Of a stretch of 60,494 nucleotides of DNA, positions 2,062-3,781 are shown piece after piece. Below the pieces are notes generated by a model. That model saw nothing but the letters and a program-made list of their open reading frames with translations. It did not search any database and was not told the origin of the DNA. Numbering within the stretch: position 1 is the first letter of the stretch; the number at the start of each line of letters is the position of its first letter. The stretch comes from a virus. Its lineage: Duplodnaviria > Caudoviricetes. A program made the position numbers and the translations under genes. The DNA lies in IMG/VR virus record IMGVR_UViG_3300032331_000843, positions 1 to 60,494 of that record, one strand, 5' to 3'.

Positions 2062-3781
2062 TTGATTCGTCCTCTACCATCTGTATTCTTTTACCAATCC
2101 ATGCCATCACGGGTACAGCCATTGAGTTACCCATTGCCTTATACCGTGGCGCATCGGGAGAGTCAGGCTTGCCTCGCCAAGGGATATTTGTATATCCATC
2201 CGGAAAGCCTTGCAGTCTCTCGCATTCTGTTGGGGTAAGCCTACGGACTGCCATGTTCTGCAACACACCAGGGCTTTGGCTTCGAGTGAGCGTGCCTGAT
2301 ATATCTTCCTCGAACTTCATCTCATCAGGGCGGGCGTTCACATTGAATGCAATCTGTTGGTCTTGGGTCACGCTTAGAGTAAAAGCTTTCTCATCTGAAC
2401 CAAGGTATCCCTTGCCACCACCCTCGCATCCACCCCGAACCTTGAAGGCGTGGGCCACGAAAGTCTGAGCATGGTGCGACTGGACTGACGGACGTAACGC
2501 TTGCAACGCAGGTGTTACCTCTAAAGTTGTAGCACTAAAGTTGTTTGCCTTGGCATCTTCACGGATTGAATAGGCGACTGATGCTTGGTTGTCGCCCATC
2601 TGCGCACGCAATGTAGGAGATAGTTCTTCCGTAAAACGATTAGGATTACCCTCTCTCTTGGTAACGCCTGGCTCAAACCCATAAGCAACTGCATGGTTAG
2701 GGTAGCCACCGTCCCCGCCTGAGCGAAGGGTAGGGCTTACATCATTGCCAACATCTCTTGCTGCATCTGATTGAGTAAAACCAATAGAGTAAGCAACGCC
2801 TTGAGTGGCGGCGGCATCCAAGGTATACATCACCTCATCATTCCATCCACGCCCGTTCTGTTTCTTATCTCTACCTGATACATCTTGAATAGCGACAGAT
2901 TGAACAAGCGGGACATTGCCACCGCCAGTCCCCCAACGACTCGTTACCGTCTGACATACCTCACCCATCTCTTTAACACGAGAGTCTGCGGGATGAGTTT
3001 CATATACGATTAAATCTGTATGGTCTTTGTAGTCACGGGCTTTCAATGTGCTTGCCGTGCCGTCATCTGCATACTCACCAAAGGCAACCAAGCGGTTCGT
3101 TGTTACTAGAGTTTCTGATCCTCCTCCGAGGTCTCCTCCGTCTCGTCTGAGTGTCCCGACTCCTTCACCGTAGTTTCCAAAGCTGCTTGGAGAAAAGGCG
3201 GAAGCTTCTTCCCTCGCTTGTCTGCTCGGCGGAGGATTCCTGAGCAAGCTTTCCCGCTCAAATAAAACTTTTGCGGGAGCAAGCCAGTCTCCAAGACATC
3301 CGACAACAAACACACGTCTGCGTCTTTGGGGAACTCCGAAGTATTGAGCGTCAAGCACCCGATATGCGAACCCATACCCGAGTTCAGCCACCGCCCCGAG
3401 GAAGGAACCAAAGTCCCGTCCACCATTTGAACTGAGGACGCCTGGCACGTTTTCCCATACGAACCACTTGGGTCTAAACTTATCAAGAATTCCGCAATAG
3501 ACGAGGGCAAGGTTTCCCCTTGGGTCTTCAAGACCTTTGCGGAGTCCTGCGACTGAGAAGGATTGACACGGGGTTCCTCCGACCAAAAGCTCAACTGTTC
3601 CATTTGTATTCCACTCCTTATATTTAGTCATGTCGCCAAAGTTTGGCGTGTTTGGGTAATGATGCGCCAATACTTCTGACGGAAACTTCTCTATTTCTGA
3701 ATAGCCAACTGCCTCCCAACCTAGGGGATGCCAAGCCACACTTGCTGCCTCAACTCCTGAACATACTGATAGATATCTCAT
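2054..3781 (-). CDS. DNA (cytosine-5) methyltransferase with an expanded, modular variable region
   Basis: Motifs I (SVCSGVEA), IV (GGTPCQSFS), VI (ENVPG), VIII (PQRRRRVF), IX (RRLTPTECERLQGFP), X (YKAMGNS). Confidence 0.95.
   Translation of the reverse strand: MRYLSVCSGVEAASVAWHPLGWEAVGYSEIEKFPSEVLAHHYPNTPNFGDMTKYKEWNTNGTVELLVGGTPCQSFSVAGLRKGLEDPRGNLALVYCGILDKFRPKWFVWENVPGVLSSNGGRDFGSFLGAVAELGYGFAYRVLDAQYFGVPQRRRRVFVVGCLGDWLAPAKVLFERESLLRNPPPSRQAREEASAFSPSSFGNYGEGVGTLRRDGGDLGGGSETLVTTNRLVAFGEYADDGTASTLKARDYKDHTDLIVYETHPADSRVKEMGEVCQTVTSRWGTGGGNVPLVQSVAIQDVSGRDKKQNGRGWNDEVMYTLDAAATQGVAYSIGFTQSDAARDVGNDVSPTLRSGGDGGYPNHAVAYGFEPGVTKREGNPNRFTEELSPTLRAQMGDNQASVAYSIREDAKANNFSATTLEVTPALQALRPSVQSHHAQTFVAHAFKVRGGCEGGGKGYLGSDEKAFTLSVTQDQQIAFNVNARPDEMKFEEDISGTLTRSQSPGVLQNMAVRRLTPTECERLQGFPDGYTNIPWRGKPDSPDAPRYKAMGNSMAVPVMAWIGKRIQMVEDESNG
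3106..3603 (-). CDS. Nested alternative-frame gene resembling the M.EcoHK31I beta polypeptide
   Basis: Own RBS (TAAGGAG) ahead of ATG 3603; RWLNSGM..LLSDVLET..LRRADKRGKKLP resembles beta as I recall it. Confidence 0.75.
   Translation of the reverse strand: MEQLSFWSEEPRVNPSQSQDSAKVLKTQGETLPSSIAEFLISLDPSGSYGKTCQASSVQMVDGTLVPSSGRWLNSGMGSHIGCLTLNTSEFPKDADVCLLSDVLETGLLPQKFYLSGKACSGILRRADKRGKKLPPFLQAALETTVKESGHSDETEETSEEDQKL

Follow-up and report, generated by a model that had tools for sequence, protein, structure and literature searches.

The window (the whole 60,494-nucleotide stretch of DNA that was analysed) is a complete virus genome of about 60 kb with terminal repeats. By its matches to Pfam PF00145 (E 4.9e-54, in two stretches) and to TIGR00675 (E 2.9e-55; 188 bits, with a cut-off of 100.65), the product of the 575-aa ORF described in Table 1 is a C5-cytosine DNA methyltransferase. 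It carries motifs I-VIII and then motifs IX and X, which is the canonical order, together with the catalytic P-C-Q. Residues 1-161 (motifs I-VIII) align to M.HhaI residues 12-170 and residues 502-565 (motifs IX-X) to M.HhaI residues 261-317; the interval between motifs VIII and IX, the position of the target recognition domain (TRD), measures about 335 aa and holds an array of nine units. The gene is the sole PF00145 member within the complete virus record. The start of the gene and the stop of the helicase gene upstream of it (3778-5256) share 4 nt, its other neighbours are small unassigned ORFs and a ParB-like protein, and annotation of the adjacent ORFs recognised no restriction enzyme gene beside it. 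Judged from this gene content, the methyltransferase is phage-borne and orphan. Part of its reading frame is shared with a second, nested gene.

Table 1. Features of the methyltransferase locus; counts in the last column refer to the 96 homologues with both flanking motifs
Feature	Position	Strand	Extent	Remarks	Homologues
C5-cytosine DNA methyltransferase gene	2054..3781	-	575 aa ORF	PF00145, TIGR00675	
Catalytic core, motifs I-VIII	3287..3781	-	aa 1-165		
Nested gene	3106..3603	-	165 aa	+1 frame of methyltransferase, wholly inside it	
Linker, motif VIII to first unit	3170..3286	-	aa 166-204		
Unit A	3098..3169	-	aa 205-228, 24 aa	two T-L dipeptides	70/96
Unit B	3008..3097	-	aa 229-258		32/96
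Unit C	2897..3007	-	aa 259-295	T-V instead of T-L	92/96
Unit D	2786..2896	-	aa 296-332		45/96
Unit E	2681..2785	-	aa 333-367		28/96
Unit F	2570..2680	-	aa 368-404		42/96
Unit G	2450..2569	-	aa 405-444		87/96
Unit H	2345..2449	-	aa 445-479		37/96
Unit I	2255..2344	-	aa 480-509		24/96
Motifs IX and X plus stop codon	2054..2254	-	aa 510-575		

A preliminary description of this DNA had placed about nine TRD-like units of 28-40 aa between motifs VIII and IX, at 2255-3200, which corresponds to aa 194-509 and falls within the variable region. All nine five-letter cores that it quoted are present in the translation, and the units are contiguous over aa 205-509. Their length range is, however, 24-40 aa, and in the seventh unit the true T-L sits six residues upstream of the quoted core. 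Nine T-L dipeptides occur in aa 205-509, compared with 1.55 ± 1.15 expected, a count that none of 5000 composition-preserving shuffles reached; the remaining 270 aa of the protein contain none. The units were also compared with a leave-out profile built from cassette types that occur solely in homologues; of these 25 types, 21 were used and the four longer than 55 aa were omitted. With this profile the whole window protein scored 38.9 bits, as against 0.2 ± 1.0 (maximum 5.6) for 200 shuffles, and five of the nine units were detected (B, 13.1 bits; D, 3.6; E, 5.8; F, -0.4; I, 13.5). The profile did not detect units A, C, G and H. The units resemble each other little in direct comparison, with a score of 27 for the best 14-aa window, and no DNA repeat longer than 14 nt was found. 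For these two reasons we rejected a recent tandem duplication and regard the units as old, diverged modules.

AlphaFold2 predicted the catalytic core with pLDDT values mostly of 74-94 (with a dip at aa 71-89) and the part comprising motifs IX and X with values of 61-94. With a 74-sequence alignment, aa 181-513 remained below a pLDDT of 50 and showed almost no secondary structure. Structure prediction, which had been put forward as a check on the array, thus returned a confident core and left the array without a fold, giving no model support for cassette folding or docking. A comparison of the variable region with solved structures yielded nothing relevant (two chance-level matches at E ≥ 1), and the cassettes showed no significant similarity to TRDs of known specificity, either in solved structures or in SPbeta MtbP. 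Unit I occupies the canonical site directly ahead of motif IX, and its end aligns with the M.HhaI strand that precedes this motif.

The window protein and the best 120 of 4076 matches formed a sample of 121 proteins, biased towards query-like proteins, of which 96 had both flanking motifs. These 96 homologues comprise 33 cassette types in 65 architectures, with 4-11 cassettes per protein, and in 30 of the 33 types a T precedes L, I, V or M. The neighbours of most types vary, with several different ones on each side, and several types can adjoin motif IX. Unit A has 8 different right-hand neighbours, and in homologues other cassette types occupy the very position of unit B. Units C and G are nearly constant in the subfamily; C, in which most columns are at least 90% conserved (74 sequences), has 10 left and 10 right neighbours, and G has 9 left and 14 right neighbours. 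In relatives with 83-98% identity to the window protein over the residues they share with it, single units have been lost, added, replaced or reordered with their boundaries fixed, and some of these relatives lack several units. Exact 111-nt in-frame indels distinguish the window from one relative without unit D (L005) and from another without unit F (L006). Both indels are placed in terminal-strand codons, and in L006 an imperfect match of 12 nt within these codons is common to both junctions. The comparison of module number and order across homologues, suggested earlier as a way to verify an expandable cassette array, bears out that claim: gain, loss and reordering proceed cassette by cassette. 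At the level of natural variants, these alignments indicate that the units are autonomous, that is, removable, exchangeable and reorderable.

Within the subfamily, the shortest variable region measures 90 aa and has one T-L-type dipeptide and the longest measures 341 aa and has nine, as would be expected if units had been added to a monospecific base. The array was also said to exceed the known examples in length. This is correct with respect to SPbeta MtbP (443 aa and two units, compared with 575 aa and nine units here), but it does not hold within the family itself, because one homologue has 11 cassettes and the variable region reaches at least 300 aa in 12 of 62 genomic relatives. A search with the array peptides found no close relatives in contigs representing one genome per species; a core-motif scan of such contigs recovered the wider family, whose members are found in many phyla, in phages as well as prophages.

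Shared cassettes are under strong purifying selection, as judged from dN/dS values of 0.05-0.06 in four comparisons, which are as low as those of the N-terminal (motif I) and C-terminal (motifs IX-X) ends of the protein. Units with a dN/dS of about 0.05 are not neutral spacers. Relative to L006, dS rises from 0.03 at the N-terminus to 0.7 in the array and to about 1.0 at the C-terminus, and this mosaic divergence along the gene indicates recombination inside it.

The nested gene covers main-frame codons 60-225, a stretch that includes motifs IV-VIII, the linker and the larger part of unit A. Its ATG is preceded, at a distance of 10 nt, by a Shine-Dalgarno-like AAGGAG at 3614-3619. The nested protein matches 3783 protein clusters at E ≤ 1e-3, and of 75 genomic relatives picked solely for their main-frame motifs, 74 have a +1 frame that matches the profile of the nested family (E < 1e-5). 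Its similarity to the +1 frame of mycobacteriophage Omega scores 225, compared with 49 ± 18 after codon resampling, and pS is 0.24-0.25 in the overlap compared with 0.69-0.80 in the non-overlapped N-terminal codons. By these measures, the nested gene is conserved and carries signatures of dual coding. Its product matches phrog_16143 only and no Pfam or NCBIfam family; the Atlas clusters that match it are unnamed and mostly viral. Confident structure prediction was limited to its C-terminal helices, which are encoded by the DNA of the linker. No canonical slippery heptamer for a programmed frameshift from the nested frame into the array was seen by eye around the nested stop, and longer +1 frames at five high-GC genomic loci (237-320 codons), considered as possible fusions, consist merely of upstream stop-free sequence. 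The only precedent for a nested gene found in the literature search is M.EcoHK31I, in which a second polypeptide is encoded entirely within the methyltransferase gene in another frame (PMC2836561). The wholly internal layout recalls, by analogy, the beta chain of that enzyme. However, in M.EcoHK31I the alpha chain lacks motif IX and obtains it from beta, whereas the main frame of the window has its own motifs IX and X. A relationship of the nested protein to TRDs or motif IX was not supported (hhalign probability 0.1 against the methyltransferase family).

Multispecific cytosine methylases are the classic case of one phage protein defeating many restriction systems, and the enzymes of SPR, phi3T, rho11s, SPbeta (MtbP) and H2 were studied by the Trautner laboratory. 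The TRDs of these Bacillus phage enzymes equal or exceed the 24-40-aa cassettes in size, and we know of nothing described for them on the scale of 33 cassette types and 65 architectures. Temperate Bacillus phages protect themselves against many R-M systems through several TRDs in one polypeptide, as stated in a review (PMC12707154). Their enzymes have in common with the window enzyme a single core and contiguous units between motifs VIII and IX and, according to that review, are phage-encoded, orphan and anti-restriction (PMC12707154); the window enzyme is likewise phage-encoded and orphan, and its anti-restriction role is a proposed one. An enlarged variable region composed of several contiguous TRD-like units, as in the SPR/phi3T/SPbeta type, is also what we find in the window. 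The two units of SPbeta MtbP have a like layout, in which a T-L or T-V core is followed by a hydrophobic strand. Only the core of MtbP aligns with the window enzyme (29% identity), apart from a weak match of unit D to one MtbP unit (39% identity over 28 aa, E 3e-4 in a single comparison). The generic cassette profile scored 2.3 bits on MtbP, below the shuffle maximum of 3.1; MtbP was absent among the nested-ORF matches listed, and no Bacillus phage was among the 27 records that matched the variable region. By its layout, the window enzyme appears to fit the Bacillus-phage kind of multispecific anti-restriction methylase, with an array that is longer and seems far more combinatorial.

Outside the SPR group, M.BssHII and M.(phi)BssHII are multispecific C5-methyltransferases, compared here by description only; M.BssHII, with about five specificities, has had the largest repertoire known to us. 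As the title of Sethmann et al. (1999) indicates, the TRDs of the M.BssHII-type enzyme lie at separated locations, whereas the units of the window enzyme are all contiguous. The monospecific M.HhaI and M.HaeIII recognise their targets through two loops, one on each side of a conserved T-L (PMC2790894). They share the core motifs, and the strand that follows their TRD leads into motif IX, the position of unit I here; they differ in that the interval from motif VIII to motif IX measures about 90 aa and holds one TRD, where the window enzyme has about 335 aa and nine T-L units. Among cultured phages, the nearest relatives of the array region include Dmt of coliphage P1 and P1-like phages (E 4e-12, with 44-46% identity over query residues 2-97). 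Dmt has a B-like unit, two or three further T-L-type units and the same nested ORF in the +1 frame, but its variable region is shorter (about 165 aa) and it is fused to an adenine methyltransferase, giving 754 aa in total. In the sections of the review that deal with Dmt, solely a Dam-type role at pac is mentioned (PMC12707154), and our literature search found no report of a C5 specificity of P1 Dmt. The same search, in which subscription journals were thinly covered so that absence from print is not established, found, apart from the work on Bacillus phages, no paper that describes C5-methyltransferases with long cassette arrays.

We consider it rather probable that the window encodes an orphan phage C5-methyltransferase in which one core is combined with nine small target-recognition cassettes, and which methylates several motifs in the service of anti-restriction. 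The cassettes are laid out like minimal TRDs, with the conserved T-L (or T-V) between two loops and a short hydrophobic strand at the end. We propose the following hypothetical mechanism, in which (i) a single cassette at a time would dock beside the catalytic cleft and read its own short DNA target; (ii) the core would flip and methylate a cytosine while the docked cassette reads the target; and (iii) methylation of several unrelated motifs would protect the phage DNA from several restriction systems of its hosts simultaneously. Since the cassettes resemble each other in their terminal strands, arrays that recombine could gain, lose, exchange or rearrange entire cassettes without leaving the frame, and a phage lineage could in this manner change its protection repertoire quickly. 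We infer that the cassettes bind DNA, that most of them are active, each with its own target, and that their role is anti-restriction. In this way, one protein probably protects the phage against many restriction enzymes of its hosts. Individual units may deviate from the scheme: unit A, with its 24 aa, may not be a TRD, and units C and G may be scaffold rather than exchangeable specificity modules.

The most probable alternative is that the enzyme has few specificities, with one to three cassettes reading DNA and the remainder being structural hairpins, silent pseudo-TRDs or positioning spacers. Candidate readers would be, for example, the cassette beside motif IX and the near-constant units C and G, which are near-universal among the homologues (92/96 and 87/96), C being almost invariant. 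The failure of the cassette profile to detect A, C, G and H and the shortness of unit A point in the same direction, and inactive TRD remnants are also carried by Bacillus phage enzymes. Spacers are nonetheless hard to reconcile with a dN/dS of about 0.05 in all shared cassettes. Moreover, at least 14 elements can follow G and several types adjoin motif IX, and these varied neighbours argue against a privileged active position, and the high turnover of particular cassettes between close relatives suggests that selection acts on which cassettes are present. We regard an enzyme with few specificities as unlikely, although it keeps appreciable weight.

A further alternative is a relaxed or nearly non-specific DNA binder, in which the T-L hairpins would jointly provide a DNA-binding surface that tolerates many sequences and most cytosines, or cytosines in a very short context, would be methylated. 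Such an enzyme would be the C5 counterpart of the non-specific adenine methylases of phages and prophages, and we consider it improbable. The review (PMC12707154) describes orphan methyltransferases of mobile elements that are semi-specific or non-specific, and the array is predicted to lack a stable structure, as many non-specific nucleic-acid binders do. Tolerance would, however, leave unexplained why more than 30 distinct cassette types are conserved and why their presence and absence are so precisely polymorphic, and short members of the subfamily have just one T-L unit, which is as large as a normal TRD. The same pLDDT values below 50 throughout the array (AlphaFold2), along with the extreme variability between close relatives, would also suit a hypervariable region without any role in recognition, for example a disordered linker that evades a host factor sensing or inhibiting the methylase. 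This we hold to be very improbable, as the region lies between motifs VIII and IX, exactly where a TRD is placed, shows a strong excess of the dipeptide that is the hallmark of TRDs and varies by whole conserved cassettes instead of point substitutions, and as an enzyme without a TRD could not select its target.

Beyond the multispecific cassette enzyme that we favour, a more far-reaching version is a genuine possibility about which we are more doubtful than confident. Here, dozens of cassettes of 24-40 aa would form a plug-and-play system in which each directs the core to its own motif, recombination at the strand junctions would generate arrays of up to 11 cassettes, nine or more motifs would be methylated per enzyme, and the nested protein might act in trans as a subunit. 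If this version is true, the rules that link cassette to motif would be readable from metagenome methylomes, owing to the residue-level boundaries and the 65 natural combinations among 96 proteins, and could be reused for designer multispecific methylases.

In summary, our study describes a phage C5-methyltransferase family with arrays of 4-11 cassettes drawn from at least 33 types, which turn over between near-identical phages. Known multispecific cases have two to about five recognition domains, and we know of no solved structure of a multispecific C5-methyltransferase. Active cassettes would provide parts for engineering methylation patterns. The findings bear on hard-to-transform bacteria, in which pre-methylation of DNA passes restriction barriers, and on phage therapy. 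If the cassettes are active, they would also constitute a natural experiment on how about 35 residues specify a DNA target, and the restriction resistance of a phage would become predictable from its sequence. The family suggests that the principle of multispecificity is much more widespread, and more modular, than the previously known cases.

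The virus record, 60,494 bp long and bearing direct terminal repeats, is complete and holds one C5-methyltransferase gene only, which is sited in a replication/recombination module that further along includes a ParB-like gene, a RusA-like resolvase, an exonuclease and an Erf-like annealing protein. Structural genes occupy about 15.7–57 kb, and a giant ORF at the end of this block matches PHROG families of unknown function only, with phrog_18222 aligning across its C-terminal 825 residues (E 7.6e-161). The methyltransferase matches PF00145 (Pfam; E 4.9e-54), split over two stretches, and TIGR00675 (188 bits). 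In the alignment with the solved structure of M.HhaI, motifs I–VIII (aa 1–161) correspond to residues 12–170 and motifs IX–X (aa 502–565) to residues 261–317. The interval between motifs VIII and IX thus comprises about 335 residues, compared with about 90 in M.HhaI.

Coordinates of the features discussed, as positions in the window
Feature	Position	Strand	Length	Remark
C5-methyltransferase gene	2054–3781	minus	575 aa	
Helicase gene	3778–5256			stop overlapped by the methyltransferase start
Nested ORF	3106–3603	minus	165 aa	+1 frame, over main-frame codons 60–225
Giant ORF	15729–22604	minus	2291 aa	

The preliminary description had placed about nine modules resembling target-recognition domains (TRDs), with their hallmark T-L dipeptide, at 2255–3200; this span corresponds to aa 194–509, inside the variable region, and all nine cores named there are present in the translation. 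We split aa 205–509 into nine units of 24–40 aa each, labelled A to I. These 305 residues contain nine T-L dipeptides, against 1.55 ± 1.15 expected when they were shuffled 5000 times; no shuffle reached nine, and the remaining 270 residues of the protein contain no T-L. The core of unit C is T-V, and in unit G a T-L lies six residues ahead of the core originally quoted. A leave-out profile, for which 21 of the 25 cassette types seen only in other proteins were used (four types longer than 55 aa were excluded), scored 38.9 bits on the whole protein against 0.2 ± 1.0 (maximum 5.6) for 200 shuffles. It recovered units B, D, E, F and I, with F weak (−0.4 bits), and missed A, C, G and H. Unit-to-unit similarity is weak in direct comparison and the DNA contains no repeat longer than 14 nt, so that a recent duplication was rejected as the origin of the units. 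They are instead a real repeat family, as first proposed, that is old and diverged.

When aa 166–505 were searched against 5.8 billion proteins, at least 4076 matches at E ≤ 1e-3 emerged among 8000 scored candidates, and the best 120 were examined together with the window protein. The comparison of modules bears out a cassette organisation: whole units are absent, gained, swapped or reordered, with fixed boundaries, in relatives whose shared residues are 83–98% identical to the window protein. Some relatives lack F, some D and some D, E and F together, and in one D is placed after F. Cassettes were labelled by a script according to their similarity to known units, unexplained segments of at least 20 aa being counted as new types; the 96 of 121 proteins with both flanking motifs found by pattern were kept and the other 25 excluded. 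These 96 proteins hold 33 cassette types in 65 distinct architectures, with four (n=10), five (n=31), six (n=29), seven (n=11) or eight (n=13) cassettes per protein; nine occur in the window protein alone and 11 in one 640-aa homologue alone (P0047). T followed by L, I, V or M is present in 30 of the 33 types, and most types have several different neighbours (G has 9 left-hand and 14 right-hand ones).

At the DNA level, two close relatives from viral contigs, L005 and L006, each depart from the window by an in-frame indel of exactly 111 nt, through which L005 lacks D and L006 lacks F. The junctions fall within the codons of the hydrophobic strand closing each unit, and an imperfect 12-nt match is common to both junctions of the F indel. 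In L005, an IMG/VR contig, motifs IX and X are also separated by an insertion of ~125 aa, for 665 codons stop-to-stop in all. Outside the nested gene, cassettes that could be aligned because both sequences have them (pS 0.16 to 0.74) give a Nei-Gojobori dN/dS of 0.05 for L005, L006 and the further locus L010 and of 0.06 for another locus, L009, compared with 0.09 in the non-overlapped N-terminus (L009) and 0.07–0.16 in the C-terminus; comparisons with loci L011, L001, L037 and L043 pair unlike cassettes and are uninformative in this respect. Divergence from L005 and L006 is mosaic along the gene: dS between the window and L006 rises from 0.03 over the first 55 codons to about 0.7 across the array and about 1.0 over the last 65 codons. 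Such a mosaic implies breakpoints within the gene and points to recombination inside it.

TRDs of Bacillus phages are about 40–50 aa long, and M.BssHII has roughly five specificities. The site between motifs VIII and IX, the T-L dipeptide and the apparent loop/T-L/loop/strand layout of the units match known C5 TRDs: in M.HhaI and M.HaeIII the target is read by two loops either side of a conserved T-L (PMC2790894), and several TRDs in one polypeptide are established for Bacillus temperate phages (PMC12707154). SPbeta MtbP (443 aa) has two units of this layout; its core is 29% identical to that of the window methyltransferase, and one of its units is 39% identical to unit D over 28 aa (E 3e-4, for a single comparison). 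The generic cassette profile did not score above shuffles on MtbP, and neither this profile nor the solved structures linked any cassette to a TRD of known specificity.

The best reading of these comparisons is that the window enzyme would be an orphan methylase of multiple specificity whose cassette array is unusually long and highly recombining. We consider it fairly probable that several cassettes are functional and recognise different targets; activity of most of the nine is a more doubtful proposition. Against this reading stand the failure to link any cassette to a TRD of known specificity, the very short unit A and the AlphaFold2 model, which is confident for the core and predicts aa 181–513 with pLDDT <50 and almost no secondary structure. 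Units C and G may instead be scaffold: they are found in 92 and 87 of the 96 homologues, in a sample that favours proteins sharing units with the query and thus probably inflates this near-universality.

The nested ORF is dual-coded with motifs IV–VIII, and AAGGAG lies 10 nt ahead of its ATG. Its product has no Pfam or NCBIfam family; it is matched by phrog_16143 (E 1.3e-9) and by 3783 protein clusters at E ≤ 1e-3 (1457 of them at ≤ 1e-10), mostly called proteins of 150–220 aa aligned end to end. The +1 frame is also open in an uncultured phage, mycobacteriophage Omega gp127 and P1-like dmt. It is open in 49 of 50 loci, a biased set since 46 were picked via the nested protein; the 50th lacks the motif VIII pattern. 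Of 80 loci picked by main-frame motifs alone, and hence without bias towards the nested ORF, 75 were usable; the +1 frame matches the nested profile at E <1e-5 in 74 and is open for at least 140 codons in 73 of those. Its similarity to Omega (225) exceeds that of 300 synonymous-codon resamplings (49 ± 18, maximum 140), as does that to the P1-like gene (186 vs 38 ± 12). Because of this similarity, the low pS in the overlap (0.24–0.25 vs 0.69–0.80 in N-terminal codons) and Shine-Dalgarno-like sequences ahead of the first start in 27 of 33 distinct nested proteins, the data support the nested ORF as a probable real gene.

In the AlphaFold2 model of the nested protein, the C-terminal helices alone are predicted with confidence (about aa 110–150, pLDDT >90), and they are encoded by the DNA of the low-confidence main-frame linker (3170–3286); the first 100 residues of the protein, which are poorly predicted, share their DNA with the well-folded catalytic core (3287–3603). 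Order and disorder are thus predicted to be complementary between the frames. In five of 14 matches scanned (11 longer than about 255 aa and three full-length), the nested domain is fused in frame to cassettes and motifs IX–X, without motifs I–VIII, and in the top match overall it runs directly into two cassettes. These fusions suggest that certain relatives are split enzymes, with the nested domain at the start of the second chain. The metagenomic relatives cited for this fusion are P0121, P0239, P0188, P0205, P0146 and P0264. The only printed precedent found for the nested layout is M.EcoHK31I, in which a second frame within the alpha gene encodes the beta chain, and that chain provides motif IX (PMC2836561); in contrast, the main frame of the window methyltransferase already contains motif IX, and a profile comparison gave no similarity between the nested and methyltransferase families.

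A comparison with 50,697 deposited phage records gave 1854 matches to the whole methyltransferase (at least 80% covered in five only) and 27 to the variable region (at least 80% covered in none). The best variable-region matches are an uncultured Caudoviricetes genome and Aeromonas, Vibrio and P1-like phages; none of the 27 is a Bacillus phage. With one genome per species, a scan with array peptides found no close relatives, and one with two core motifs found at least 595. The best 80 of these come from Proteobacteria, Acidobacteriota, Bacteroidota, Planctomycetota, Verrucomicrobiota, Actinomycetota and other phyla. In the 62 with both motifs found by pattern, the variable region spans 90–341 aa (median 236.5; at least 300 aa in 12), and T-L-type dipeptides climb from one in the shortest to nine in the longest. 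Given this range, the window array lies at the upper end of a continuum that begins at monospecific size, and is not unique. Long-array members also occur in cultured bacteria, presumably in prophages (loci L061, L084 and L100), and variable regions measure 341 aa in Silvibacterium bohemicum S15, 323 aa in Pseudomonas sp. DSP3-2-3 and 333 aa in Pseudaminobacter sp. In mycobacteriophage Omega (locus L002, 1191–2495), the methyltransferase is annotated as two genes, gp127 (motifs I–VIII, with a nested ORF of 157 aa inside) and gp128 (cassettes and motifs IX–X), a natural split form of the family.

A multispecific phage C5-methyltransferase is of a kind already known. Our literature searches, which reached few subscription journals, found no description of the features that we regard as new: the length of the array (nine cassettes in the window, up to 11 in a relative), small cassettes with a large vocabulary, a natural polymorphism of cassettes that is clean and under purifying selection, the wide reach of the family and its constant pairing with a dual-coded nested gene.
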